A stretch of DNA of 64,000 nucleotides, from positions 12,609 through 76,608 of the forward strand of contig JBDHWG010000009.1 of assembly GCA_039810085.1 (NCBI GenBank). Reading direction: 5' to 3'. The notes under the pieces were generated by a model. The model had not been told where the DNA came from, searched no databases, and saw only the letters and a list, made by a program, of their open reading frames with translations. The stretch is from Anaerolineae bacterium. Its GTDB lineage: Bacteria > Chloroflexota > Anaerolineae > Epilineales > JAHCIE01. The stretch's first letter is position 1; the number at the start of each line of letters is the position of its first letter. The position numbers and the translations under genes are program-made. Shown one piece after another: positions 861 through 20,620 of this stretch.

Positions 861-1742
861 TTATTTTTTCTTTTTCGGCTTGCCAATATTATGTAATCGT
901 TCCTCGGCTGCGGTTTCAACCGTGGCGCGGTCAATGACTTTCTTGTCGTTGAGAAACGCTAAGAGTAAGGAATTGTCAGCCAAGATATTTGCTTCACGGG
1001 GAACACCTTCTGAGTGTCTAAAAAGAGCATCGAGCGCGGCCGGCTCGAATGGATGTGCTTGATTGCCACTGGCCACCCGCCAACGAAAATCTATCATCTG
1101 AGCGAGTTCCTCGGTGCCAATTGGATCAAGCGTCGAGGCCATGGCAATGCGCGATCGGAAGTTACGCGCCATTGGATGGGTGATCTTATTGCGCAGCTCC
1201 TCTTGTGCGAAGAGGACGAGCTGCAACAACTTCATCTCATTCGTTTCATAGTTGATTAGTTGACGCAGAAGCTCAAGTAAGGGGAGTCTGAGGGTCTGTG
1301 CCTCATCAATGATGAGTACAACCGTCTTGCCTTCCTCCACAGCCTTGTCGTAGAGAAACATCTTGAAGATGTCGAGATTGTCCTTGTACGACCTGGCAGT
1401 CTTATAGAGCTGAAACTCGGCGATGATCGAGCGGAGCAGATTGTTGGTGGTGGGATAGTTGGGGTTCGTCAATAAGACGGACTGGTAGCCTTTGTCTAGG
1501 AATTTCTGATGGAGTAGGCGAGCCAAGGATGATTTTCCAACGCCAGTGTCGCCAAAGACTATGGTGAGGCCCTTTTTCGAATCGACCGTGAATTCAGTTT
1601 TTCCAAGTGCAGTGGAGTGGATCGGGGTGAGGAAGAAGTAGCGCGGGTTGGGAACCGTGCTAAATGGCTCTTCTTTCAGACTGAAGTAACTTAGGTAGGG
1701 GACTGGCATAAGTTGCGCGAACTCACATACCAGCTTACGCAA
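861..1742 (-). CDS. AAA_22 family ATPase (ExeA/TniB-like, ORC/Cdc6 clade)
   Basis: 293 aa; Walker A GDTGVGKSS, Walker B VVLIIDEAQ, N-terminal FSLKEEPFSTVPNPRYFF motif typical of ExeA-like ATPases. Confidence 0.75.
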   Translation of the reverse strand: MRKLVCEFAQLMPVPYLSYFSLKEEPFSTVPNPRYFFLTPIHSTALGKTEFTVDSKKGLTIVFGDTGVGKSSLARLLHQKFLDKGYQSVLLTNPNYPTTNNLLRSIIAEFQLYKTARSYKDNLDIFKMFLYDKAVEEGKTVVLIIDEAQTLRLPLLELLRQLINYETNEMKLLQLVLFAQEELRNKITHPMARNFRSRIAMASTLDPIGTEELAQMIDFRWRVASGNQAHPFEPAALDALFRHSEGVPREANILADNSLLLAFLNDKKVIDRATVETAAEERLHNIGKPKKKK

Positions 1743-2445: not shown

Positions 2446-2940
2446 ATGAGTAGAGGGTATTACGATACTGCACAGATTTGTCTCAACGGCCACCTCATCA
2501 ACGAGCGGGTCAATACGTTCCCCCCACATAACCAGGAGTATTGTTCTCTTTGCGGAGCCAAGACAATTACGAAGTGTCTGCATTGTCAGGCTGACATTCG
2601 AGGGGCGTATGACGTACCCGGAGTTGCGGTTTTTGGACTGCGGATTGCCGTTCCCAGATTTTGCCATGCCTGTGGTCATGCATACCCGTGGACAGAAGCC
2701 AGATTGCAAGCAGCAGAAGACTTGGCCGACGAGCTTGATAAACTCAACGATGAAGAGAAAACTTATCTGAAGGACAGCGTCAACGATATTGTGAGAGATA
2801 CTCCGCAAACACCGGTAGCAGCAACGCGATTTAAGCGCTTGGTTGCGAAAGCTGGCTCAGAAGCAGCATCGATGTTTCGTGATCTTCTTGTTGACATAGC
2901 AAGCGAAACCGCCAAGAAAATAATCTGGCCCGGGCCGTGA
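2446..2940 (+). CDS. DUF2321 family zinc-ribbon protein
   Basis: 164 aa; N-terminal MSRGYYDTAQICLNGH...CSLCGAK...CLHCQADIRGAYDV...FCHACGHAYPW matches the DUF2321 Cys-rich signature. Confidence 0.7.
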   Translation: MSRGYYDTAQICLNGHLINERVNTFPPHNQEYCSLCGAKTITKCLHCQADIRGAYDVPGVAVFGLRIAVPRFCHACGHAYPWTEARLQAAEDLADELDKLNDEEKTYLKDSVNDIVRDTPQTPVAATRFKRLVAKAGSEAASMFRDLLVDIASETAKKIIWPGP

Positions 2941-3062: not shown

Positions 3063-4343
3063 ATGGCCGAACCAACGAAATATGTCATGATGGACGATGC
3101 CGCTGAAATCCTAGGCTTGTCACCCGTCCGGATCCGAAAGCTGATTAAAGAGGGTGCCATTCGGACAGCCGGATCCAGCCGTGCACCCTTACTCGCCTGG
3201 GATGATGTTTGTCGGATAGCAGGAGCTCAACGTCCTCCTTGGGCACTTCTCACAAATGAGCTTGTTCATGGCTCTGTCTCGCCAGAAGGCTTGTTTCTCG
3301 CGAAACTAGAATCCGCGGATACCAACACTTCATTCGAGACCAACCAGGTCGCCAAAGGTCACTGCATTGACTGGATGAAAAAGATGCCGGCCGGTTCAGT
3401 TCAAACCGTTGTGACCTCTCCTCCATACTGGGGTGTACGCCGCTATAAAGGGGAGCAGGAGGTGCTCTGGTCTGATGGTACACGATGCGCATTTGGAGCA
3501 GAGGATACCCCTGAAGCGTATGTCCGGCATACAATGGATATCCTTAGGCACCTCAAGCGTGTGCTTCGCGATGATGGCGTCATCTGGTGGAATATTGGTG
3601 ACTCGTACCAAACGCGAACACACATTCGAGAGGGGAGTGTCGAACGGCTCCATGCCCTTGATGGACGTCGACAAGATGGGTGGAAGGACTATCCCCACAA
3701 GCGCTATTCAGCAGGGCACGATTACCTCAAGGACAAGGATCTCACCCTCGTGCCCTTCGCGGTCGCGATGGGTGCGCAACATTTAGGCTTCTGGGTGCGC
3801 TCAGTCATCATCTGGAGCAAAGAAAACACACTCCCTGAGCCGGTAAAAGATCGGCCGACCACCTCGCACGAGTATATTTTCATGCTAGTTAAGTCCCGCT
3901 TCTATTACTACGCGCATGACGTTGCTAAGGACCAAACCCGGTCAACGAAATGGGCACCCGAAGATATAGACGGCCAGCTAAAGAATTGGCGCACCGTTTG
4001 GACATTTGCGACTGCTGGGAGTGAAGACCGCAATCATACAGCAGCATTTCCTGAAGAGTTACCCAAGCGATGCATAGTAGTCAGTTCGAGACCGAACGAT
4101 CTCGTCTTTGATCCCTTTGCCGGTTCAGGAACAACGCTCGTAGTGGCAAAACGTCTTGGTCGTCAATACTTCGGCTGTGATCTGAGCGACGAATATGTTG
4201 ACGAGGCGTCTGCTCGACTGGAGCGAGAACGAGGAAGCCTTCAAGCCACACTTGAAGATGCGCTCCCACCAACAGAACTTGAGCGTGTTATAGACCAAGA
4301 GTCTGAAGCTCAGCCAAACAGAGAGCAGCTGCCACTCTTGTAA
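3063..4343 (+). CDS. DNA methyltransferase (beta-class N4-cytosine/N6-adenine) with N-terminal HTH_17/excisionase-like domain
   Basis: 426 aa; N-term DAAEILGLSPVRIRKLIKEGAIRT HTH; motif IV TSPPYWG precedes motif I FDPFAGSGTTLVVA (beta permutation). Confidence 0.85.
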   Translation: MAEPTKYVMMDDAAEILGLSPVRIRKLIKEGAIRTAGSSRAPLLAWDDVCRIAGAQRPPWALLTNELVHGSVSPEGLFLAKLESADTNTSFETNQVAKGHCIDWMKKMPAGSVQTVVTSPPYWGVRRYKGEQEVLWSDGTRCAFGAEDTPEAYVRHTMDILRHLKRVLRDDGVIWWNIGDSYQTRTHIREGSVERLHALDGRRQDGWKDYPHKRYSAGHDYLKDKDLTLVPFAVAMGAQHLGFWVRSVIIWSKENTLPEPVKDRPTTSHEYIFMLVKSRFYYYAHDVAKDQTRSTKWAPEDIDGQLKNWRTVWTFATAGSEDRNHTAAFPEELPKRCIVVSSRPNDLVFDPFAGSGTTLVVAKRLGRQYFGCDLSDEYVDEASARLERERGSLQATLEDALPPTELERVIDQESEAQPNREQLPLL

Positions 4344-4358: not shown

Positions 4359-5678
4359 CTATAAAACTGTTCTAAGCCAGGAGCCCAGTCGAGTAACTTC
4401 TGCCGGTATCTGTGACAGGTCGAAGCCATACCCATATACCATACGGTCATCCGCTGTACGGGCTTCCTGGAGGGTCGCAGTCCCATCCGTGAGGAAGATG
4501 AAGCCTCCAATGGGCGCGTTGTATGCGCTCATGTAAGCCGCAAGCTGGTAATGATCACTGCTATCCGGTTCAAACTTATACTTCACATCAAGAAGTGCCG
4601 CTGTCGTCTGAAGGGTTGTGGACGGACGAATAACGATGTCTGGCTGAAGATTGGCGTTGAATCTGCTTGGCACGGCTCGCTGGTACATAAATGGGCGCCC
4701 GCCCAACCGCACATCATCGCGCCATGAGCGAACGGCGTACATTGGCTCAAGCGCACGCGCAACAATGTTGCGAACGGCTCGCTCAAACAACCGCTCCATC
4801 GGAAGACGCAACGGCGGATACTCAATCTCCGGATGACTCGCTTGGGTTAATGCAAATCGTTCCAGTAGAAGGCGACAGAAGCGCAACACCGGTTCATAGT
4901 ATTCACGGTTCGGCGGAATCCCTCCCCGCTCCTCCAGCAATCGACAGACCGACACCGCCTCGGCTGCGGATGCATACTCGGTGATCGGTGGTAGCGTAAG
5001 CATCTGAGAATACAGTCGTTCGCGGGTTGATGCGGTTAGGGTATCTGCAGAGGCGGCAAGAATAGAGAGCGTTGTTGCAATCACCTTGTTCAGGGAAATG
5101 TCGAGGGTATACCGAACAATACGTTGATCTATCAGGAGTTGACCTCGTTCAATGCTGGTCGTCAGACTCTCGAAAAAATCAATTTCCCCCTCGGGGAACG
5201 CAGAGAGAATCCGTCGGTCCTGATCACCACCCGCCCAACCAAGACGCACAACCTCCTCCAACGTACTCAGCAATTGATCCACCAAGACATCAAGAATGGT
5301 GACGTCGGCTTCAAGGCCATAGTACACCTGCTGATCGGGTATGGTCACGGTTGGTTCATCGGCGAGAAGAAGCAGGCGAACCAATGAGACCGGCCCGCAC
5401 TTGGCATCAACCTGGAGAATAACCCCGTCTCCCAGCAACTCGGTGGTTACGGTGGGTGGACTCTTGGCCGCAATCGTGTGATAGCCGGCAACGGTGGAGA
5501 GGGAAATATCAACAACGTCGAGGGCAAGTGGGTTGATAACTAAGGGCAATTGATCTGTGGGAACTAGATACCGACCAGTCTCGCTAATACGAATCCAGCG
5601 GACGAGCTTACCGCTTCTCGTCACGGCGTTTTCAATGGCAGCAAATTGAGTGTCGGGGGCCATACCAGTATTCGGCAA
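4359..5678 (-). CDS. mcrC: McrC-like 5-methylcytosine-specific restriction system nuclease subunit
   Basis: 439 aa; C-terminal PD-(D/E)xK signature PDIVIRP...LLDVKYKF; 1-bp gap to mcrB stop. Confidence 0.75.
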   Translation of the reverse strand: MPNTGMAPDTQFAAIENAVTRSGKLVRWIRISETGRYLVPTDQLPLVINPLALDVVDISLSTVAGYHTIAAKSPPTVTTELLGDGVILQVDAKCGPVSLVRLLLLADEPTVTIPDQQVYYGLEADVTILDVLVDQLLSTLEEVVRLGWAGGDQDRRILSAFPEGEIDFFESLTTSIERGQLLIDQRIVRYTLDISLNKVIATTLSILAASADTLTASTRERLYSQMLTLPPITEYASAAEAVSVCRLLEERGGIPPNREYYEPVLRFCRLLLERFALTQASHPEIEYPPLRLPMERLFERAVRNIVARALEPMYAVRSWRDDVRLGGRPFMYQRAVPSRFNANLQPDIVIRPSTTLQTTAALLDVKYKFEPDSSDHYQLAAYMSAYNAPIGGFIFLTDGTATLQEARTADDRMVYGYGFDLSQIPAEVTRLGSWLRTVL

Positions 5679-5679
5679 T

Positions 5680-7380
5680 CTATGATCGGAATGTAGCCAT
5701 CAACGGATCAACCTGATCGGTCACAACCGATTCCTGGCGTTGCGTCAAAAACAACTGAAGAGATGGTCGCAAAACGGTCATATACCAGTCCATCAGGTCT
5801 GGTTTATCCTTGATGTCGACGAAATGGGCGTGTCCGATTGGATACTTGGTCAACTCGGTGATCTGCCGCATGACGGCAACGATCTCCATTGCATCGTCCT
5901 CTGTGAATGTACTGTGATCCACAAGAAAATCAAACATCTGCTTGTAGCTAACGGCAAAATCGACAGTGCGAAATCGGGAGAGCAATGCGTAGTCGAGTGG
6001 GTACGTCAAGCGGTCGAGTGTGTTCATGGTTGCAATGAGCAGCAGTTGTTTGGGGATGACAATGTTGCCCCCGCCGTGTGGTAGCGGCAAAGACGTGCCC
6101 CGATAGCCCATCTCGATCAGATGAAACCCCTCTCCAAAGACGGCTGCAACATTGGCCCGATTCAGTTCTTCAATGATCACCACTGATGGTCGATCAGCAT
6201 TACGCTGACAATGCCGAAGAAACAGTCCGGGTTCAGCGGCGAAGTCGAGCGCACCTTGGGTCAGTTTCGGTGTGAGACGTTGGATAAAATCGCCATACCG
6301 CCATTCTTGATGAAACTGGACATGGAGAACGCGCTCCGCCCAGAGAGCGGGATCTGCTGCCTCGGTCGCCTGAAGGTAATCCTCCGCAATATGGACTGCG
6401 CTATACGACTTGCCCGTTCTGGGAGCGCCCGTCAACAGAACGTTCAGTTGACCCTTCTGGATTATTCGTCGCGTAAGTTCAATTGGATCAGTTGCATGCT
6501 CCTGGCTAATCCCCAGAAGCTGCGCGTTAAATTGCATTTGCGCCATGCTACTTGCCTCTCGTAGTCGGATCTCAAAAGGATCGACCTGGCCAAACAAGAT
6601 AAGGTGGTTGTATTCCTCTTCGTCACGATCTTGTTCGAAATCGTCTGTCTGAAGGTTAGGGGCTGATGATCGTTGCGTAAAAAGAAAATACAGTTCCTCG
6701 TCCGAAAGCGAGAGTCGTGACCGCACCAAATGCGCAAGCTGGTCAAAGTTCGGCTGGACCTCGAAAACTTCATTACGGCAACACCAAATGACAAATGGAA
6801 TCCAGGGGATACTACAAAGCCTATGCTCATCAGGCCCAAAGAAAATCGGTGCTGCATCAAGGTATTTAGGTCGCAGTCGAAGGCGCGCACCTTGACCTTG
6901 TTCAGCCTCGATAAGCTCGAAGAGAAACTCACGCGGTCTCAAACCGTATCGTTGCTCCTGCTTATCGAACCAATCGTTCTTGAGTCTGGTCCAGATAACG
7001 CTTCGGTTACTGTCCTCTTTGCGCAGGAGATACCGCCGGTTATCACTGATTGGGAAAAATAGGGGGTAGCCAACAGTTCTTGAAACGCCTTGAGGTGCAG
7101 AGGGGAGGGGCGGTTGATTATTCTGAAGGGTGCCATTTTCAACGCTTAATTGCACGAGTGAACTAAATGAGTCGCTGATCCACGCTAGATATCGAAGTGC
7201 GTCCGTCGGCTTGTTCGCTGACGTGATTTTTACCTCGCTGGCAATATTCCCCTCGATTCTAGCACCGTCATACTTCAATGCTAGAAAGACGATGATATCA
7301 CTATGTGCTGTTCCGAAGAGCGAGCGAGCTGCTCGGGCAATGAGTTTTGGTTTCAAGCGAAACACGGGACCGGACCTCAT
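5680..7380 (-). CDS. mcrB: McrB-like AAA+ GTPase subunit of type IV restriction system, with unassigned approximately 300-aa N-terminal DNA-reading domain
   Basis: 566 aa; LLTGAPRTGKS Walker A, VVIIEELNRANVAAVFGEGFHLIE and LLLIATMNTLDRL motifs characteristic of McrB. Confidence 0.85.
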   Translation of the reverse strand: MRSGPVFRLKPKLIARAARSLFGTAHSDIIVFLALKYDGARIEGNIASEVKITSANKPTDALRYLAWISDSFSSLVQLSVENGTLQNNQPPLPSAPQGVSRTVGYPLFFPISDNRRYLLRKEDSNRSVIWTRLKNDWFDKQEQRYGLRPREFLFELIEAEQGQGARLRLRPKYLDAAPIFFGPDEHRLCSIPWIPFVIWCCRNEVFEVQPNFDQLAHLVRSRLSLSDEELYFLFTQRSSAPNLQTDDFEQDRDEEEYNHLILFGQVDPFEIRLREASSMAQMQFNAQLLGISQEHATDPIELTRRIIQKGQLNVLLTGAPRTGKSYSAVHIAEDYLQATEAADPALWAERVLHVQFHQEWRYGDFIQRLTPKLTQGALDFAAEPGLFLRHCQRNADRPSVVIIEELNRANVAAVFGEGFHLIEMGYRGTSLPLPHGGGNIVIPKQLLLIATMNTLDRLTYPLDYALLSRFRTVDFAVSYKQMFDFLVDHSTFTEDDAMEIVAVMRQITELTKYPIGHAHFVDIKDKPDLMDWYMTVLRPSLQLFLTQRQESVVTDQVDPLMATFRS

Positions 7381-11130: not shown

Positions 11131-12588
11131 ATGGACGCATCCTTTCAGCAAATCAAAACCAATTTCCGTACGCTGCTCGTCGCCGCAGTAGACGAGGGTC
11201 TTGAACATGTTGCGCAGGTAATGAGTGACAGCAGATGGATCGGAACCTACTTCCAATGGCCGGTGATGTCGAAGTGGGAAAGCGGTCTTCCGAGTTTTAG
11301 ACTAAGTCAATTTGAAGGCCCGAAAGATTACAGCATGTTATTCACCGGCCCTGATCCAATAATCGATGCTGATACACTCAAATCATTCCAAGCGCTTGTG
11401 TCATACGTTAAGCAAGAGCCATTTTTGCAGGACAGGCTACTCCCAGTGACAGTGGGTCAGGACAGGCAGGGCGTTATCGAGGATGAGCGTCTTGTCCGGA
11501 TATTCGTGTACCAAATCCTCGAAGCGCTCATTGACCGATATATTCATACACACGCAAGAACCACCTTTGACATGACGGCGTTTGAGGTTGTTTACGAACC
11601 GTATGCCCGATATTTGTTCGAGGAGCAACTCTTAGCAGATATATATGTGCCAATCCTTTTTCTGAAATTTGCTGATGATACCATCACGATAGACGAAAAC
11701 ACAGCGATTGAGCGAATGAGCGATGCATTTCAGCTAGCACGCGCTCCTCTCAAAGCGTATGGGCCAGGTGTCCATGAAGCAGTTATGGGGGCAGCAACCC
11801 ACGCTCTAGTGCTTCGAAATTGGCCGGTCCGCAACGGGAACACGTGGGAGTTCTTACAGCGCCTTACAGAAGTGAGTGTATACCCGCTGGATGACATAGA
11901 CAACTTCTTCGCGGCTGTGAGAATTGTCACGGGCTTCGAAACGGGTTACGCACAACTGCTTGTGAACCCTAAGGGGTGGGCGGCTCACTATAAAGCTGAC
12001 CTCCCTCCGATTGAGGGAACGTCAAGACGAGCCTACCCTAATCGGTTCGAGAATTTCTACTGGCTAAGAAAAGAGGTGCCTGAGATAAACAAAGCAGGTG
12101 CTCAAGAAATAGGTCGTGTGTTCCTGAAGTTACTCCAAATTAAGGGAAATTCCGTGCAGATTGCCGCGAGACGGTTGAATCTTTGCTATCTCCGTGAGCA
12201 TGAAGAGGACTATATTCTTGACGCTACTATTGCGCTTGAAGCTCTTTTCTCTGACGATGAGCGAACAGAGATGACCCACAAACTAGCCTTGAGAGTTGCA
12301 GCACTAGCAACCATCTCCGACGTGTTTCGGCGCCCCCCAAAGCAAGTGTTTCGTGAGGTGAAGCAAATTTACGGGTATAGATCAGCCGTCGTCCATGGTA
12401 GCAAAAAGACTGACCGAGCACGAGACATTACGGTACATCATACGCAACGAGTACCCGCAGGTACTCTGGCCGTAGAATATCTCCGTCATGCATTGCTTAT
12501 CTTGATTGACCATCCCCAATATCGAGAGCCATCGCGCATTGATGAGGATTTGTTGCTTGGCAAAGGCGTCGATGAGCAATCTACATAA
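11131..12588 (+). CDS. Hypothetical 485-aa protein with C-terminal HEPN-like Rx4HG motif (YRSAVVHGS)
   Basis: Motif and surrounding helical pattern parallel the 8712-9977 protein; N-terminal region unassigned. Confidence 0.5.
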   Translation: MDASFQQIKTNFRTLLVAAVDEGLEHVAQVMSDSRWIGTYFQWPVMSKWESGLPSFRLSQFEGPKDYSMLFTGPDPIIDADTLKSFQALVSYVKQEPFLQDRLLPVTVGQDRQGVIEDERLVRIFVYQILEALIDRYIHTHARTTFDMTAFEVVYEPYARYLFEEQLLADIYVPILFLKFADDTITIDENTAIERMSDAFQLARAPLKAYGPGVHEAVMGAATHALVLRNWPVRNGNTWEFLQRLTEVSVYPLDDIDNFFAAVRIVTGFETGYAQLLVNPKGWAAHYKADLPPIEGTSRRAYPNRFENFYWLRKEVPEINKAGAQEIGRVFLKLLQIKGNSVQIAARRLNLCYLREHEEDYILDATIALEALFSDDERTEMTHKLALRVAALATISDVFRRPPKQVFREVKQIYGYRSAVVHGSKKTDRARDITVHHTQRVPAGTLAVEYLRHALLILIDHPQYREPSRIDEDLLLGKGVDEQST

Positions 12589-12781
12589 CGATGGTTGTTG
12601 CGTCAATCCTGATAGTCTTAATTTCGAAAAAAGGGACCAATATGAGGGTAGAGCAGAGAAGGCGACGCGCGTTGCGCAACATGGACGGCAACACCGTCGC
12701 GTTTCCACCTCTCTTTTCCATCCTCTGGTCCCTAGAATCATTCTCTGATCACCTCCTCTTGCGGTTGTGGTCGTTCATCGG

Positions 12782-13769: not shown

Positions 13770-14126
13770 TCAGTAGTCCTCCGGGAGCAAAATGGTTGTG
13801 ACTGAGCGATCCGCCTCGGTGATGACGTAGATCTTCGTCCCCGTTCTGAGGTGATAGGCACTCAAGATCCGAAAGCCCCGTTTGACGGACAATTCGTTCT
13901 CCGCCTTGTCCTCGTCATCGAGGTCTCCCCAATCACCACCAATATGGCGGCCGAGAAACTCCGCAGGGTGTTGCCCTGCCTCCTCTAGCGCCGCTAAGGC
14001 GCCAGGGGTAGCCACAATCTGGCCGAGGTCAAAGAGCTGTCTTGCCATAGATAGGTCTCCTTTGGGCAGAATGCCCGGTAGGTAATCTACTACCCCCGAA
14101 ATGGAGTAGCGCCCCGAGAACCTCAC
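13770..14126 (-). CDS. Conserved hypothetical protein (118 aa) of a type recurrently seen on plasmids/ICEs
   Basis: Motifs LGRHIGGDWGDLDDEDKAENE and KIYVITEADRSVTTILLPEDY; family not assigned with certainty. Confidence 0.45.
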   Translation of the reverse strand: MRFSGRYSISGVVDYLPGILPKGDLSMARQLFDLGQIVATPGALAALEEAGQHPAEFLGRHIGGDWGDLDDEDKAENELSVKRGFRILSAYHLRTGTKIYVITEADRSVTTILLPEDY

Positions 14127-14290
14127 GAAGAGATACCCAGAGCGCTACACCAACTGGGAAAGAAGCTATTCAGGTTCACCGCAAGGTTTCAAGGTGCAGA
14201 AATCAATGTGTGTCAGAAACGCAACAATCAGAGAGCCATCTCCCTGGTGTTACAGTCTCAAACACTCTCCAGTATATCCTGTTTCAGAAC

Positions 14291-14875
14291 TCAAAATCCC
14301 AGGCCACGCTCTTTCAGACTTGTGAAACCGCTTCGGCCAACAACAATGTGGTCGAGCAACTCCACTTCAAGGATCCGCCCGGCTTCAACTAGGGTCTTGG
14401 TCACCCGAACGTCATCTCTGCTGGGCGTCACATCGCCCGATGGGTGATTATGAACCATGATAATGGCGTGGGCGTTGTCGAGAATGGCCGGCCGAAACAC
14501 CTCAGCGGGGCGAACGGGGCTGCTATTGAGGGTGCCCTGGTACACCATCGGACAGGAGATGATCCGGTTCTTGGTGTCGAGTGTAATGACGCGGACCTGT
14601 TCTTGGTCAAGATCCTCCATCTCAACCCGAACAAATTCATAGGCATCACGGGGACTGGTGATCTGAAGTGCATCCTCCCGAGGTCGCCCGGTCTTTGCCT
14701 CATAAAGGCGTGAGGCTTCGGCGATAAACCAGCGTAGGAGGTGGACAAACTCGGCTTCATCGGGCCGCAAGAAACTCATTTGGGCTTCATGGACTCGTCG
14801 GACTCGTCGTTCTTGGGGCAGCGGCATAGTCGAGCCAGTATAGCATATGGGGTGTAGGACTGGTGTTGATATCAC
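14291..14875 (-). CDS. radC: RadC-like JAB/MPN domain protein
   Basis: 194 aa; JAMM motif HNHPSGDVTPSRDD and C-terminal LKERGLGF; start uncertain (GTG 14875 or ATG 14827). Confidence 0.8.
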   Translation of the reverse strand: MISTPVLHPICYTGSTMPLPQERRVRRVHEAQMSFLRPDEAEFVHLLRWFIAEASRLYEAKTGRPREDALQITSPRDAYEFVRVEMEDLDQEQVRVITLDTKNRIISCPMVYQGTLNSSPVRPAEVFRPAILDNAHAIIMVHNHPSGDVTPSRDDVRVTKTLVEAGRILEVELLDHIVVGRSGFTSLKERGLGF

Positions 14876-15068
14876 GAGTTAGTGCTCGGGACCTCCCCGA
14901 TGGGCGGGCCTCCACCTGACAAACGGGCAAGGCGTATCCGCGTGAGAGACGACCTTACAATCCGTTCTCGGGTGGAAGTATAGGAACTCATCTCTCATCC
15001 GGCGATTGGCGTCGTTGCTTGTGTGTTGACTACCGTCAGTCTTGGTGGAATCATACGGATGAGGTTGT

Positions 15069-15353
15069 GTGGCGAGGTCACGAGAAAAAGGGGGGGCTGT
15101 GGGGTTCGTCGCTGTGTTCGCGATCCTGCTGGTTGGTGGCTTCATTGCCAGCAGATTACACGGTCGTATCGTGGTCAGCAATCTAGCGATCTCCATCGTT
15201 TCGATTGCTCTGCTGCTGCTCGTCTACCTGATGCTCGCAAAGCTCATACTACCGGCGGTCTGGCCAAGCGCTGATGTCATCTCGACGCTGTTATTGACGA
15301 TTGTGATTGTAGGGCTCCTCTCGCGTGGTATCTTTCGGTGGCCGGGTATGTAG
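15069..15353 (+). CDS. Possible small membrane protein (94 aa, about 3 hydrophobic helices)
   Basis: Only hydrophobicity pattern; no family. Confidence 0.2.
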   Translation: MARSREKGGAVGFVAVFAILLVGGFIASRLHGRIVVSNLAISIVSIALLLLVYLMLAKLILPAVWPSADVISTLLLTIVIVGLLSRGIFRWPGM

Positions 15354-15554
15354 AGGGCGTGATTGAGGTACGTTTCTCGTGTAGCGGGTCGCCGTGTACA
15401 AGATGGTTCTGTTGCGCCAGAGCTGCCGCACTCCGCTCTCTCACTCCTCGTTAGTCGCCTATCGGCTCCCTCCTCGTCGTTCGCTCGCTCCGTTTGACCT
15501 TGGTAGGGTTGATGCAATGTATGACTAACCACGTACAGACGGGATATTGACCAT

Positions 15555-16535
15555 GTGACTTATAATGTCTGCATGACTACAGAACATGGTCGCCAAGTCT
15601 ATGACGAACAATTTAAGGACGAAACAGTACGGGCTCTCGGTGAAAGTGGAATGACACTTACTGCATTTGCTCGGGTTCGAGGGATACCACGAACAACCTT
15701 GTGGGATTGGAAACACGGAGGCATTCAGGGAGAAGAAGCTGTAGGAAGTCCAAGAAGCCTCCTATCCACTGAAGATGGGGAACGACTGCCAACTCGTCCT
15801 AAATTAGGTATATTTATTGACGACGAACCACTCAAATTTAAAAAATGGGAGAGAGTTTTTACACTGGAAGGCTTTGAAAGTCTCACTCCAGATCAAATGC
15901 TCCATGATGGCATGTCGGATACTCAAACTATTCAAGCTTTAGATCAATGGATGGATTTACTAATTCATCTTCCTGACCGAGCTCTCAAAGATGTTGAGAT
16001 TGTGGTCATCGATCAGTTCAATTTCTCTCAGTATCTACAGATGAAAGCAAAACACTTAATAAATCGACTTCGTAGCGTTAACACAATGGCATGGGTTTTG
16101 GAAACTAGTGGAGTGGTTGAGCCACATGTATATGAGGGAACAAATGCTGTTCTTGACGCGCTTGATACCACTCAGGCAATTGACCTAGTAGAAGATGCTC
16201 CATTAACTTTATCAGCTCGTATTCAAGCATTTAAAATATTTACATTGACCCCATTCCTTGAAGCACAAAAGGCCGATACAGTAAATGATGATGAAAAATA
16301 TAGTCCTTCGGAAGGATTGAACAAATTAATAAGTCACAGGAAATTCAATGAAGCACTGGCTGCTATAGGGATATCTGAGAGAGAGTTTTTTAGCATTTTA
16401 GCACTTAAGCGAGATGATGACCTGCGCCCTATTGTGCATGATTTAGGGAATCTCATGGGGCATATGATACTTGATCATGGTGATGAATATTACACAATGT
16501 CGGTAGACAAGCTGCGACGGCTTCTTCGAAGGTAA
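15555..16535 (+). CDS. Hypothetical protein with N-terminal IS3-OrfA-like HTH (HTH_Tnp_1-like) fused to an unassigned AT-rich-encoded domain
   Basis: 326 aa; YDEQFKDETVRALGESGMTLTAFARVRGIPRTTLWDWK resembles IS3/IS911 OrfA HTH; remainder of gene markedly AT-rich relative to surroundings. Confidence 0.5.
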   Translation: MTYNVCMTTEHGRQVYDEQFKDETVRALGESGMTLTAFARVRGIPRTTLWDWKHGGIQGEEAVGSPRSLLSTEDGERLPTRPKLGIFIDDEPLKFKKWERVFTLEGFESLTPDQMLHDGMSDTQTIQALDQWMDLLIHLPDRALKDVEIVVIDQFNFSQYLQMKAKHLINRLRSVNTMAWVLETSGVVEPHVYEGTNAVLDALDTTQAIDLVEDAPLTLSARIQAFKIFTLTPFLEAQKADTVNDDEKYSPSEGLNKLISHRKFNEALAAIGISEREFFSILALKRDDDLRPIVHDLGNLMGHMILDHGDEYYTMSVDKLRRLLRR

Positions 16536-16588
16536 TTCTTCTGACCAGCGCAATTCTTCTGGACGGCTCGGCAGGTCGTCATTCTGCT

Positions 16589-16987
16589 TTACCGTCGTGC
16601 CCATTGTTCCAGTGTATCTATGACACGTTTGATAGCCGAAACGCACCTTTGTGCATCGCTTACCGACACGTCACGCTCTGCGTTATGAATAATGTTGTTC
16701 CTCTTCTTGATGGCCTCAGCAACGACTTCAATATCGGTCTCATTTATACCTGCTAGTCCTTTGATCGTGCCAAGGCCAATGTTCACAAACGCGCTTAGCC
16801 CCATGTGTTCAATGAGTTTATCGAGGTGGTCCTGATTGAGCGAGGAAGCACCTGGAAGCCGGGTGATGGCCGTCGGAGCAACTTGTCGTGCAGTTGCCTC
16901 CAATGCTATGACAGCCTCTATAATCGCTATACGTCCGTTGCCTTCCTCTAGGTGGCTAATACTATTCGCTATAAGAACCTCACGCAC
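16589..16987 (-). CDS. Small HEPN-motif protein (KKRNNIIHN, Rx4H)
   Basis: 132 aa, all-helical; Rx4H motif near C-terminus as in HepT/DUF86-like HEPN toxins. Confidence 0.5.
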   Translation of the reverse strand: MREVLIANSISHLEEGNGRIAIIEAVIALEATARQVAPTAITRLPGASSLNQDHLDKLIEHMGLSAFVNIGLGTIKGLAGINETDIEVVAEAIKKRNNIIHNAERDVSVSDAQRCVSAIKRVIDTLEQWARR

Positions 16988-17101
16988 GGGAGGCTTCTTG
17001 TTACTGTCAACAAGTTGTTGAAGCTCCTGCCAGTTCGTGCTACCTAGTGGAGTCGATAACCTGGTGCCTACTTTTGCCCCTGCTCGGGAACCGATCTCGT
17101 G

Positions 17102-17644
17102 CTATTCGTGCTCGCTGTAGTAAGTCAAGCCAACATCGCCTATCCTTCTCATCGGAGGTTCAAAAACCAATGGACGCCATTTGCCATCTTCATCTAGCCA
17201 GAGTGAATGACCACAACTGTTAAATAGTTCGACGTATGGGCTTACTGGATCAACCGGGAGCGTCTCAAGCCAGTATTGTTTCAGGACGTTTCGAACGTAA
17301 CCTGCGAAGCGGTTGTAGGTTGTCGAGACAATCACCCAGACCAGCCGATAAAACTCCTTTAGCTCGTCAGTTATCTCGCCATCTCGAAGTGCTTGTATTA
17401 CTCTGGCATTTGGTGTCGGAAGATCTGTTTCGATAACGAGATCGTGCCAAAAATAGGCGGTTTGATCGGTCGGATCGTCGGTGTAGAGGATATTGCCTGA
17501 AGGCGCTCGGACAGAGAGCCAAACGGAGTATATTCCATTCTCGATGGTGAACTGCAATCGATTAGTTTCTACGAGTGGATCAGAAGGTGAGATCCACAAG
17601 GACTCCCACAGCATGAGGGATATCTTCAACTGCATGGTTGTCAC
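17102..17644 (-). CDS. Hypothetical protein (180 aa), upstream partner of small HEPN gene
   Basis: No recognisable motif (no GSx9-13DxD nucleotidyltransferase signature). Confidence 0.45.
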   Translation of the reverse strand: MTTMQLKISLMLWESLWISPSDPLVETNRLQFTIENGIYSVWLSVRAPSGNILYTDDPTDQTAYFWHDLVIETDLPTPNARVIQALRDGEITDELKEFYRLVWVIVSTTYNRFAGYVRNVLKQYWLETLPVDPVSPYVELFNSCGHSLWLDEDGKWRPLVFEPPMRRIGDVGLTYYSEHE

Positions 17645-17707
17645 CTGGCTTTAGTGAACGGAGAGCTCAAGCCGTAATTATAGCCTCGCCTCACGAATTG
17701 TCGAAGG

Positions 17708-18001
17708 TTAGGTGGTCTGATGCTGCCTCTTGAGTTCGTCTAGGCGCTCCAAAATCCACATACGAGCCAATGTGGTTGGCCCAATCCCTTTCTTTTTCGC
17801 CAGAGTGCGGAGTTCCTCCAATGTATCTGGGTCAAGCCGAACGGTCACACCGCCAGAGAGATTCTTGGCAAACCTAACATCTACGGGCTTCCATTGATGC
17901 CAGTAGTCAGTAAAGCTATGCGTATCCCAAAACGCTGCCTCTTCCTCCCTAGTTTTGAAGTCTGGGATTGGCAGTGATGTCTTCTTTGATGTATCGGTCA
18001 T
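17708..18001 (-). CDS. brnA: BrnA antitoxin (CopG/RHH-like)
   Basis: 97 aa; DPDTLEELRTLAKKKGIGPTTLARMWILERL typical of BrnA. Confidence 0.75.
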   Translation of the reverse strand: MTDTSKKTSLPIPDFKTREEEAAFWDTHSFTDYWHQWKPVDVRFAKNLSGGVTVRLDPDTLEELRTLAKKKGIGPTTLARMWILERLDELKRQHQTT

Positions 18002-18285
18002 GCTGCGTGTTCACCCCCTTTGTCTCTTTGGTAATCTCTTCTCTCTTTCTTATCTGCGGATCGAGCGGTGACGGGATAATAAACGCCCTGACCCTCTGGA
18101 TCGAGAACAACGGCAAGCATACGTCCATCGAGCGTTGGCCCAATGACCATAATGCGCCCTTTGTAGCTCTCGCGAATGATATAATCGCCCTGGCAAACAT
18201 CTTCAACGTCCTGCTGTGTGACCCCGTGCCGTGCAATATGCTCCGTGTTCCAGGTATCCCAAAGAAGGCGAGCAATGACTATCAT
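17998..18285 (-). CDS. brnT: BrnT toxin (RelE-like fold, DUF497)
   Basis: 95 aa; WDTWNTEHIARHGVTQQDVEDV...RIMVIG...RMLAVV typical BrnT; ATGA overlap with brnA. Confidence 0.75.
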   Translation of the reverse strand: MIVIARLLWDTWNTEHIARHGVTQQDVEDVCQGDYIIRESYKGRIMVIGPTLDGRMLAVVLDPEGQGVYYPVTARSADKKERRDYQRDKGGEHAA

Positions 18286-18287
18286 AC

Positions 18288-18318
18288 AACGAACGCATCA
18301 TAACATAATGCGTTCGTT
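18288..18318. promoter_or_regulatory. Inverted repeat AACGAACGCAT-N9-ATGCGTTCGTT immediately upstream of brnT start (putative operator)
   Basis: 11-bp perfect arms read in sequence, 3 nt from brnT ATG. Confidence 0.3.
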
Positions 18319-18652
18319 GAAACAAGGGGTTCGGTTGTACTCTATGTCGCCTAATGCTCATTTTACGTCATGAGGGCATAGTGGGGTTTTAGGCGTTGGG
18401 ATGAGGTTTTTTCAATTATGGAGAAGACGGGCGCAAGAGGGATGAGCCGAGTTTCAACCTATAACCGTCGGTCGAGCTGGCTCTAGGCCACAAAAAAAGA
18501 GAACTGACGACAGGAAGACTTGGGAGTAAAGAGAGCGCGTTTCGCGCAGAAGCACCAGTTGGCGCACTCTTCGTCCATTGTCGATCCTTTTTCTTGTCGT
18601 AGTTCTCTTTCTTCAGCGCTCCAAGCGCTGACCTCATTCCTCGCGGATGATT

Positions 18653-19471
18653 TTACTCGGCCGGGGTCGCGCCCGCGTTCTGATCGCGCATGTGGTTCTC
18701 AAGGATCTCCACAAGAAGGTGGACTTCAGCAGAACTGAGGAGGTACCACCACCCGGCAAGGTTGACCACTTTGGTAGCAGTCTGAGTAGTAGGCTCGTCT
18801 TCGCCCCGGAAAACGCTCATCGTCGCCCTCCTCTCATCCAGAGCCTTCCCAAGCTTCACTTGGAGGTCCGCATCCAGAAGGTACTCCTTGCCCTGGAGGG
18901 TGATCGTCACATGTGGGGGCTGAAGCGTCTCGGGGATCTCGAAGGGCTCGATGATCTCGTTCTCCCTCTCGGTCTTGAGTCTGAGCGCCCATGGCTCCCA
19001 ACTCTCCCAGAGGTCGGAGATGATCTTGTTGTCCGGGGTGCGCTTCCGCGGCAGCTTGTTCTCCTTCAGAGGTGTATCGAGGTAGGTGTGAAAGATGTCC
19101 GGTATGCGCGTCGGCGTGTACTTGTTGTTCTCGTACACGCTTTTCTCAATCAACGCGTTGATCAGCACCTGTTGGCTCGGACTGGCAGAGTCATAGATTT
19201 CGAGCATCGATGAGATCAGGTCGAAAGTGGAGGGACCGGCCTCCTCATCGGCGTTGATGCCTAGCGCCTTCTTCTCCACCAGGTCGACCTCCAGCTCATA
19301 TGAGATCACCACCTTTCCGCGCACGGTCTGCACCTCTCCCGCTTTGATTCTGCGGTTGAGCTCCTCTCTGGAGATCCCCAGGTGATTCGCCGCCTCATTC
19401 AAAGTCATGTTCTTGCTATCTACCGCCGTCATAGCCATCGCTGTCTCCTTCGGGCATTCTGCCCTTTGCAT
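18653..19471 (-). CDS. Hypothetical protein with N-terminal HTH_17/MerR-excisionase-like HTH
   Basis: 272 aa; MTLNEAANHLGISREELNRRIKAGEV; remainder unassigned. Confidence 0.5.
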   Translation of the reverse strand: MQRAECPKETAMAMTAVDSKNMTLNEAANHLGISREELNRRIKAGEVQTVRGKVVISYELEVDLVEKKALGINADEEAGPSTFDLISSMLEIYDSASPSQQVLINALIEKSVYENNKYTPTRIPDIFHTYLDTPLKENKLPRKRTPDNKIISDLWESWEPWALRLKTERENEIIEPFEIPETLQPPHVTITLQGKEYLLDADLQVKLGKALDERRATMSVFRGEDEPTTQTATKVVNLAGWWYLLSSAEVHLLVEILENHMRDQNAGATPAE

Positions 19472-19869
19472 GTTGTTACTGTCCCAAATAGAACAGCGCC
19501 CAGAGACCTCATTGTGAGATATCCAAGCGCTGTCCTATTCAGGCAAGGAGACGGTTGAACCGATTGAGTCAATTATTTGTCCGCAAAGAATTAATGTGCA
19601 TGCAAAACAGAGAAACATCTGAGACGCACTGCCTCTGTTTCTCAATCCGCAACCTCATATTATACCCTATAGTCTGATTTATGTCAATACCAACTCCCTC
19701 TCGTTCCCTACAGTCCCCCCTCTTCCTAACCACAGTCGAGGCAAAACCACCCCTATGGCCTCCACTTCCCCGCTCTCATCTTCCTGGCAGCGGCCACACT
19801 GACTGCCTGCGGCAGTCAGACCTCTTCGGCAAACCGCCGAAGGAGCACCCGGAGCCCGAAGCGCCGTAG

Positions 19870-20140
19870 CGGAGCCGTCCTGTGGCGAAGCGGTCAGCCG
19901 GAGCGAGCAAGCGACCGGCGCGAAACGAGCGGGGTACAAGCGGACGAGGCCAGGCGAGCAGTCTGACGAGGTTCGGGGAGTCAGTCTGCGAGCCGACTAG
20001 GGCCGAAGGCCGCAGCCCGCGAGTGCAGCAGAGGAAGCAGCGAGCGAAGGCCAGCGAAGCCACGAAGACCGGCGCAGTGGAGGCGCGAAGGGTCGCCGCG
20101 AAGCGAGCGAAAGCCCCGTGCTAACGGGGCTTCAGAGGGC
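19870..20140. repeat. GC-rich non-coding tract with at least 6 GCGAAG/GAGCGAA motif repeats and several hairpins
   Basis: Direct reading: GGCGAAGCGG, GCGAGCGAAGGCC, CAGCGAAGCC, GCGCGAAGGG, CGCGAAGCGAGCGAAAGCC; hairpins CTGACTGCC-TGC-GGCAGTCAG (about 19797) and GCCCCG-TGCTAA-CGGGGC (about 20115). Confidence 0.3.
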
Positions 20141-20275
20141 GCGGACGGAGGCGGTAGCTGGTTTGCCGGCTGTCAATACGTGTGTATACTCAGAGGTGAG
20201 GCCACTATCACATCTGGAACCGGATGGTTGTCCGAAACGGCACGGCAATTTGAGAGACCACATTGCGTATCAAAC

Positions 20276-20620
20276 ATGGTGATGCTGGAAATGTCGCTGC
20301 TCGACCATGAGCAGCTGCGCGTTTTGCTGCTCGACACAAAGAACAAGGTGCATGGCATTGTCACTGTCTATAAAGGCACAGTCAACAGTAGCCAGGTGCG
20401 CGTCGCCGAGGTATTCAAGGACGCCGTGCGCCACAATCACCCAGCGATCATCGTCGTCCACAACCACCCGTCGGGCGACCCGACGCCGAGCCGTGACGAC
20501 GTGCGCGTGACGCGAGAAATGGTGCAGGCGGGCGAGCTGCTGGGCATTAACGTGCTGGACCACATCGTCATCGGCCAGCAGAAGTTCGTCAGCATGAAAG
20601 AGCGCGGGCTAGGCTTTTGA
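20276..20620 (+). CDS. radC: RadC-like JAB domain protein, N-terminally truncated paralog
   Basis: 114 aa from ATG 20276; [18 protein letters not shown]...MKERGLGF, roughly two-thirds identical by eye to 14291-14875 product over the JAB domain. Confidence 0.7.

Follow-up and report, generated by a model that had tools for sequence, protein, structure and literature searches.

A low-GC gene in a probable Anaerolineae genomic island that joins a transposase-class helix-turn-helix to a predicted receiver-like module

We analyzed a 64,000-nt stretch of contig JBDHWG010000009.1 from an Anaerolineae bacterium (contig positions 12,609 to 76,608, hereafter the window) and describe a gene at window positions 15555 to 16535. 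Its product joins an N-terminal helix-turn-helix (HTH), of the class found in the OrfA protein of IS3-family insertion sequences (IS), to a conserved module that otherwise occurs in stand-alone proteins. We refer to it as the fusion gene. The best-supported reading, which we hold tentatively, is that of a DNA-binding regulator, acquired from elsewhere, in which a receiver-like switch module governs the HTH. The product would be a soluble three-part protein that arrived by horizontal transfer from a lineage of low guanine-plus-cytosine content (GC) into a 65%-GC genome, where its gene resides in an island of about 20 kb of defence and toxin-antitoxin genes. The HTH would bind DNA, and a flexible linker would connect it to the 250-residue signalling module, in which a divergent CheY/receiver-like domain is predicted to pack against a helical domain without known fold match. 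The state of an acidic pocket (D89/D90, D153, E183 and T184/S185) would set DNA binding by the HTH and hence transcription; that state could reflect metal or ligand binding, phosphorylation, or docking of a partner on the helical domain, in which His295 is invariant. Such logic would be that of the atypical or 'pseudo' response regulators, with the output domain placed at the N-terminus instead.

Reading frame and base composition

The gene had been predicted from the sequence alone as a frame of 326 amino acids (aa) (the original prediction), and we found it exactly as described, with a GTG start at 15555. An alternative start at ATG 15573 yields 320 aa and is used by most public gene calls (P0001), while the 326-aa version appears in one public call (P0003). 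The peptide quoted in the original prediction, YDEQFKDETVRALGESGMTLTAFARVRGIPRTTLWDWK, comprises aa 16-53 of the fusion protein, and the AT-rich run quoted there, aaattaggtatatttattgacgacgaa, is located at 15801-15827. A long stop-free frame in such AT-rich DNA had been called improbable by chance. Using the base composition of 15795-16535, we obtained a stop probability of 0.068 per codon, or about one stop per 15 codons, and a probability of 2.8e-8 for 246 codons without a stop. The remaining five frames of the same segment contain 14-36 stops. At this probability the open frame lies far beyond chance, which bears out the earlier claim; the gene is real and a spurious open reading frame (ORF) is excluded. 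Identical copies were present on 9 metagenome contigs, all from one strain (0-1 mismatch). Reading of the sequence between Met33 and the first strand of the module (β1) gave zero in-frame ATG, GTG or TTG codons, so the C-terminal module can be produced only as a fusion.

The base composition of the gene is foreign to the genome. The core genome, represented by positions 20-64 kb of the window, has a GC of 0.65 and a GC at third codon positions (GC3) of 0.75-0.85. The island, positions 1-20 kb, has a GC of 0.51, with GC3 values of 0.47-0.60 in the genes neighbouring the fusion gene, which itself has a GC of 0.415 and a GC3 of 0.31 and is thus conspicuous even against the island. Local GC is 0.37-0.41 across 15800-16400, compared with about 0.50 in the flanks. 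When the gene is divided into its parts, GC3 is 0.35 for the HTH, 0.25 for the linker and 0.30 for the module. A low GC3 thus extends to the HTH, which indicates that the fusion arrived as one piece and does not fit the joining of an AT-rich domain to a resident HTH. The nearest homologues of the module (P0002, P0005 and P0006) have GC3 values of 0.26-0.32, and loci of family members range in GC from 0.35 to 0.49. These values fit a recent transfer of an already fused gene, as the original prediction of recent acquisition would have it, and they fit a donor from a low-GC lineage, the composition of the whole gene resembling that of the family's usual low-GC hosts.

Domains of the fusion protein

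In order to find relatives, the fusion protein was compared by an exhaustive phmmer search with 1.84 billion cluster representatives at a cut-off of E<=1e-3. The search returned 42 proteins, about 38 of which align solely to aa ~75-326. These homologues are stand-alone proteins of 243-292 aa (two are longer) and lack the N-terminal HTH. The closest, P0002, is a 284-aa protein with 32% identity and no HTH, and is the sole relative besides the fusion protein itself among the word-indexed matches listed. No family member carries an N-terminal HTH, and the fusion architecture is therefore a singleton. Alignment of the family (A1) revealed the motifs G.FIDD, V.VI.DQF, RLR..N..AWI.ETS, Y..SN, RL.AL, F.EA and LH..W...GHL..G.....Y..SL.RL. 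The module is thus a conserved domain and not an accident of the reading frame. The family is rare, with about 40 clusters in the database searched, and the module gave no match to Pfam, NCBIfam, PHROGs or PADLOC models. Single-sequence and profile searches of PDB sequences gave nothing below E=0.69, and PADLOC-DB defence models gave no match to the fusion protein at E<=0.1. Two scans of GTDB representative genomes and searches of phage genomes, plasmids and IMG/VR viral contigs turned up no relative, which leaves an origin from a phage or a plasmid unsupported. A scan of JGI metagenomes with the closest sub-alignment yielded nothing, while a scan with another clade yielded 3 loci. Outside this gene the module occurs solely as stand-alone proteins, in low-GC uncultivated bacteria whose genomes are probably small.

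The architecture of the protein was examined with an AlphaFold2 model built with alignment A1 (mean predicted local distance difference test score (pLDDT) 85.3, predicted template modelling score 0.75). Residues 81-326 are modelled at pLDDT >90. The HTH appears as helices 11-31, 35-41 and 50-53 at pLDDT 60-73, and aa 1-16 and 52-71 are disordered, with pLDDT <50 for 52-71. Residues 83-213 follow the topology β1-α1-β2-α2-β3-α3-β4-β5-α5, which in the model is a CheY-like (βα)5 fold, and residues 219-325 are entirely helical, in a modelled arrangement that has no known fold match. DSSP places strand β1 at 83-88, β3 at 147-153 and β4 at 180-185. Conserved residues cluster at the ends of these strands. 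Just after β1 lie D89 (32 of the 38 family members) and D90 (38/38); D153 (35/38) is the last residue of β3, with Q154 (36/38) beside it; E183 (38/38), T184 (27/38) and S185 (30/38) are found at the end of β4. The signature residues of CheY are D12/D13, D57 and T87. By secondary-structure position, rather than by superposition of residues, D89/D90, D153 and T184/S185 occupy the places of these three. The helical domain carries the motif LHxxWxxxGHL...Y..SL.RL, in which H295 is invariant in the family. The original prediction had described this part of the protein as an unknown domain of 270 aa. With about 38 homologues it is conserved, and it is no longer fully unknown, consisting as it does of a predicted CheY/receiver-like domain followed by a helical one.

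The best Pfam match of the HTH is HTH_Tnp_1 (PF01527) over aa 13-55, with E=0.013 and 16.1 bits for the whole protein and E=0.0012 and 19.4 bits for aa 1-70 alone, both scores falling below the gathering score of 24.1 bits. IS66 TnpA models match the region similarly weakly. In the exhaustive search only P0039 and P0045 matched the HTH region. Both consist of strong HTH_Tnp_1 units repeated in tandem (E=2.5e-18 and 7.8e-36), and through these strong members the assignment of the class is supported by transitivity, in agreement with the earlier placement of the N-terminus in the IS3 OrfA class. The two proteins also illustrate that the class is not confined to transposases. The likeness of the fusion protein to IS3 OrfA is limited to the first ~55 residues. 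Unlike an IS3 element, the fusion gene lacks both an orfB/DDE transposase and inverted repeats, and its protein has neither the leucine-zipper region of OrfA nor a close homologue among IS proteins. When OrfA and OrfB of an IS3 element (from locus L007) were used in tblastn searches of the window, nothing was found (best E=0.71 and 2.9), and Pfam detected no rve domain on the ORFs flanking the fusion gene. No convincing terminal inverted repeats surround the gene; the sole candidate, at 14948/16563, has 18-nt arms with 78% complementarity, and the second of these arms is the terminator-like hairpin described below. No IS OrfA was among the exhaustive-search matches of the fusion protein. With no orfB in the window and no credible inverted repeats around the gene, an IS remnant was rejected, as the original prediction had argued; no orfB lies downstream and the long frame is conserved. 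Annotation as a piece of a transposase would therefore be wrong. The homologue P0002 does have an intact IS3-family element (OrfA with HTH_Tnp_1, OrfB with rve) 66 nt downstream of it, at L007 1058-2204 on the minus strand; this is probably a coincidence, though of note given the IS3-class HTH of the fusion protein.

Possible functions of the module

The switch reading is favoured because the module is fused to an HTH and because receivers rank first among the folds that resemble it. Several results weigh against it. The HTH is sub-threshold in Pfam and was modelled at pLDDT 60-73 only, and the stand-alone homologues have no DNA-binding domain. Pfam Response_reg (PF00072) does not match the window protein and matches 1 of the 38 family members at the noise level of E=0.0097; when A1 was compared by hhalign with CheY or with a receiver profile of six sequences, the reference sequences having been entered by hand, nothing was detected (probability <3%). 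With no link at the sequence level, we call the domain receiver-like in fold and pocket geometry, and not a member of PF00072. The family lacks an equivalent of the lysine that receivers have after β5, its columns 192-203 showing the consensus Y..SN, and canonical phosphorylation is doubtful for this reason. The window copy also departs from the family consensus, with G for W298 and K for R319. Finally, no histidine kinase gene was found among the annotated neighbours in the window or adjacent to any homologue. DNA binding, the use of the receiver-like pocket as a switch and a regulatory role for the protein are inferred.

The genes next to stand-alone homologues point in another direction. 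In three of about nine clades a glycosyltransferase gene stands immediately before the family gene, in the same orientation (Table 1), and this adjacency suggests, on the basis of gene order, a functional link with envelope glycan synthesis. The module could accordingly be an enzyme or an enzyme partner and not a switch. The main rival to the regulator, which we consider doubtful, sees in the module an enzyme, or else an accessory subunit that an enzyme requires, acting on envelope glycans or sugar phosphates. D90, E183 and H295, together with D153, Q154 and R319, would then line a metal-dependent active site lying between the receiver-like and helical domains, and the HTH would only tether or retarget this activity. 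Besides the glycosyltransferase genes, a GDSL lipase gene that comes after the family gene in one further clade agrees with such an activity. Invariant Asp, Glu and His residues are typical of catalytic or metal sites, and Foldseek also matches the module to DNPH1-type nucleotide hydrolases, which have the same fold and a catalytic Glu. In another clade, represented in two different metagenomes, the family gene is followed by a gene for a DUF2130 protein. Other homologues lie amid housekeeping genes, one adjoining FtsK and another on a contig of 470 kb that also holds DprA and TopA.

Alternatively, the fusion protein could serve one of the island's anti-phage or toxin-antitoxin systems as sensor or regulator, controlling for instance the convergent genes for BrnT/BrnA, the 180-aa protein and the HEPN-like protein, or the divergent RadC gene. 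Such a role is possible, co-location being what supports it, and we regard it as unlikely. The low-GC island holds McrB/McrC-like proteins, a DNA methylase, DUF2321, an AAA_22 ATPase, two Rx4H proteins, BrnT/BrnA and two RadC proteins, and the neighbourhood is identical on other contigs of this strain. All contigs come from one strain, however, so that linkage cannot be assessed by conservation. The fusion protein has no PADLOC match, zero homologues of the family occur in a comparable defence context, and the convergent orientation speaks against co-transcription with the HEPN row.

A broader picture that we would entertain at most as a long shot is that the module represents an undescribed signalling or catalytic family, found in uncultivated low-GC bacteria whose genomes are probably small, that works with membrane glycosyltransferases, possibly as a self-contained Asp/His phospho- or metal switch, and that a high-GC bacterium captured it and made it into a DNA-binding regulator by HTH fusion in a defence island.

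A decaying remnant, in which an IS3-type orfA fragment was accidentally joined to a captured gene and has no function now, is very improbable. In its favour are an IS-class HTH without the rest of OrfA, the complete IS3 element 66 nt away from P0002, the nearest homologue, and the replacement in the window copy of W298 and R319, which are usual in the family. Against it are a frame of 326 codons that stays open in DNA predicted to contain a stop every ~15 codons, the retention of the invariant D90, E183 and H295, the high AlphaFold2 confidence, and the lack of an orfB, of inverted repeats and, among the 1.84 billion representatives, of a close IS relative of the HTH.

Returning to the acquired regulator, we compared it with known systems of related design. 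Compared with atypical or pseudo-receivers such as the N-terminal domain of TadZ/CpaE, CikA PsR, AmiR and RitR, the module retains the DD, D and T/S residues, which are missing from many pseudo-receivers. It differs also in its invariant Glu just before the T/S position and in its helical C-terminal domain without fold match, and shares no detectable sequence similarity with these proteins. PhyR consists of an N-terminal σ-like domain and a C-terminal receiver that is canonical, phosphorylatable and recognized by Pfam; the σ-like domain binds an anti-σ factor and not DNA. The fusion protein resembles PhyR in having the output or binding domain first and the receiver-type domain second, and presumably also in its logic, with the N-terminal domain under the control of the receiver's state. 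In contrast to PhyR, it has a short transposase-class HTH, a receiver-like domain that sequence models do not detect, and a third domain after it. KaiA, a protein of 284 aa with a pseudo-receiver and a C-terminal helical bundle, is similar in size and in the order of a receiver-like domain and a helical domain of ~100 residues. Foldseek aligned full-length KaiA over ~300 columns with E=0.02 (4g86, 1r8j and 5c5e). The helical domain of the module did not match the C-terminal four-helix-bundle domain of KaiA, nor was a histidine phosphotransfer (HPt) four-helix bundle with a solvent-exposed His recognized in it.

The family has no counterpart in Pfam, NCBIfam, PHROGs, PADLOC or PDB sequence space. 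Its members combine a predicted receiver-like pocket and a helical domain, the latter without fold match and with an invariant histidine, and the window holds a one-off fusion of this pair to a predicted DNA-binding domain. Should the module act as a switch, phosphorylation-independent (or unusual) receiver signalling would gain one more variant, and the module would offer a handle on the regulation of glycosyltransferases in poorly known bacteria. For the genome, the gain in annotation would be a foreign regulator of atypical-receiver type within a defence island. Nothing that we found is mechanistically surprising.

Transcription and island context

The features of the gene and its surroundings are collected in Table 1. 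A gap of 680 nt separates the fusion gene from the divergent RadC gene. This gap, the convergent gene downstream and the terminator-like hairpin make the fusion gene look like a monocistronic, independent transcription unit. The TATAAT hexamer close to its start may, judging by its spacing, serve as the -10 element for a transcript without a leader; for want of a good -35 hexamer, it was not among the promoters reported by the scan. An Rfam scan of 14000-20500 gave only a chance microRNA match (E=0.25). The 94-aa ORF that lies in the 680-nt gap is probably a small membrane protein. A 94-aa ORF that also lies upstream of the homologue P0014 was compared with it and is unrelated.

Table 1. Features of the fusion gene, its island and the loci of selected homologues. 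Positions are those of the window unless a homologue locus is named.
Feature	Position	Strand	Remarks
AAA_22 ATPase	861-1742		
DUF2321	2446-2940		
N6/N4 DNA methylase	3063-4343		
McrC-like	4359-5678		
AAA_5 McrB-like	5680-7380		
485-aa protein	11131-12588	+	HEPN-like; C-terminal Rx4H (YRSAVVHG)
RadC/JAB-domain protein	14291-14875	-	Pfam E=1e-43
94-aa ORF	15069-15353	+	200 nt before fusion gene; shorter (84 aa) in NCBI/ENA calls; three hydrophobic stretches
Fusion gene, complete ORF	15555..16535	+	326 aa from GTG 15555; stop codon 16533-16535
TATAAT, perfect hexamer	15561..15566	+	6 nt before ATG 15573
N-terminal HTH	15591..15719	+	aa 13-55; HTH_Tnp_1-like (IS3 OrfA class), sub-threshold in Pfam
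Linker, predicted disordered	15720..15794	+	aa 56-80; matches N-terminal tail of stand-alone members (A1)
Predicted CheY/receiver-like (βα)5 domain	15795..16199	+	aa 81-215
Predicted all-α C-terminal domain	16200..16532	+	aa 216-326; seven helices
Terminator-like stem-loop	16562-16580	+	7 pairs; with T-rich tail 16562..16590; in the 53-nt gap between convergent genes
132-aa protein	16589-16987	-	Rx4H (KKRNNIIHN); sub-threshold HEPN_RiboL-PSP match
180-aa protein	17102-17644	-	matchless in every library
CopG/BrnA	17708-18001	-	
BrnT	17998-18285	-	
272-aa protein	18653-19471	-	N-terminal HTH_17/excisionase-like; weak matches to PADLOC mad1 (E=4.9e-4) and phrog_66 excisionase/regulator family
Second RadC/JAB-domain protein	20180-20620	+	Pfam E=2.9e-41; exactly at jump to core-genome GC
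Family gene after Glyco_trans_2_3	L008 4505-6782		gap 1-3 nt
Family gene after Glyco_trans_2_3	L010 303-2574		gap 1-3 nt
Family gene after Glyco_trans_2_3	L011 64-1620		gap 1-3 nt
Family gene after GT2, then MptA_B	L016 1018-3723		41-nt overlap; cluster also with UbiA and GT4-type transferase
Family gene after GT4 gene	P0021 contig		62-nt gap
Family gene, then DUF2130 protein	L013 8001-9923		DUF2130 protein of ~387 aa
Family gene, then DUF2130 protein	L014 762-2708		DUF2130 protein of ~387 aa

Positions 1-20100 of the window are probably a genomic island whose left end lies beyond the window, and a GC peak of 0.70 at 19850-20149 lies at its right boundary. To judge by its gene content, the first 20 kb form a defence-type island. 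The 485-aa HEPN-like protein has no Pfam or PADLOC match, a weak match to phrog_28161 (E=4.5e-4), and is the sole member of its 90%-identity cluster. Downstream of the fusion gene, the four minus-strand genes for BrnT, CopG/BrnA, the 180-aa protein and the 132-aa protein follow one another with gaps of -4, 63 and 114 nt and may constitute a four-gene toxin-antitoxin/HEPN module. The fusion gene converges on this row, the stop codons being 53 nt apart, in the arrangement given by the original prediction. Further along, the 272-aa protein may be the excisionase or a regulator of the island. The two RadC paralogues bracket the toxin-antitoxin/HTH part of the island.
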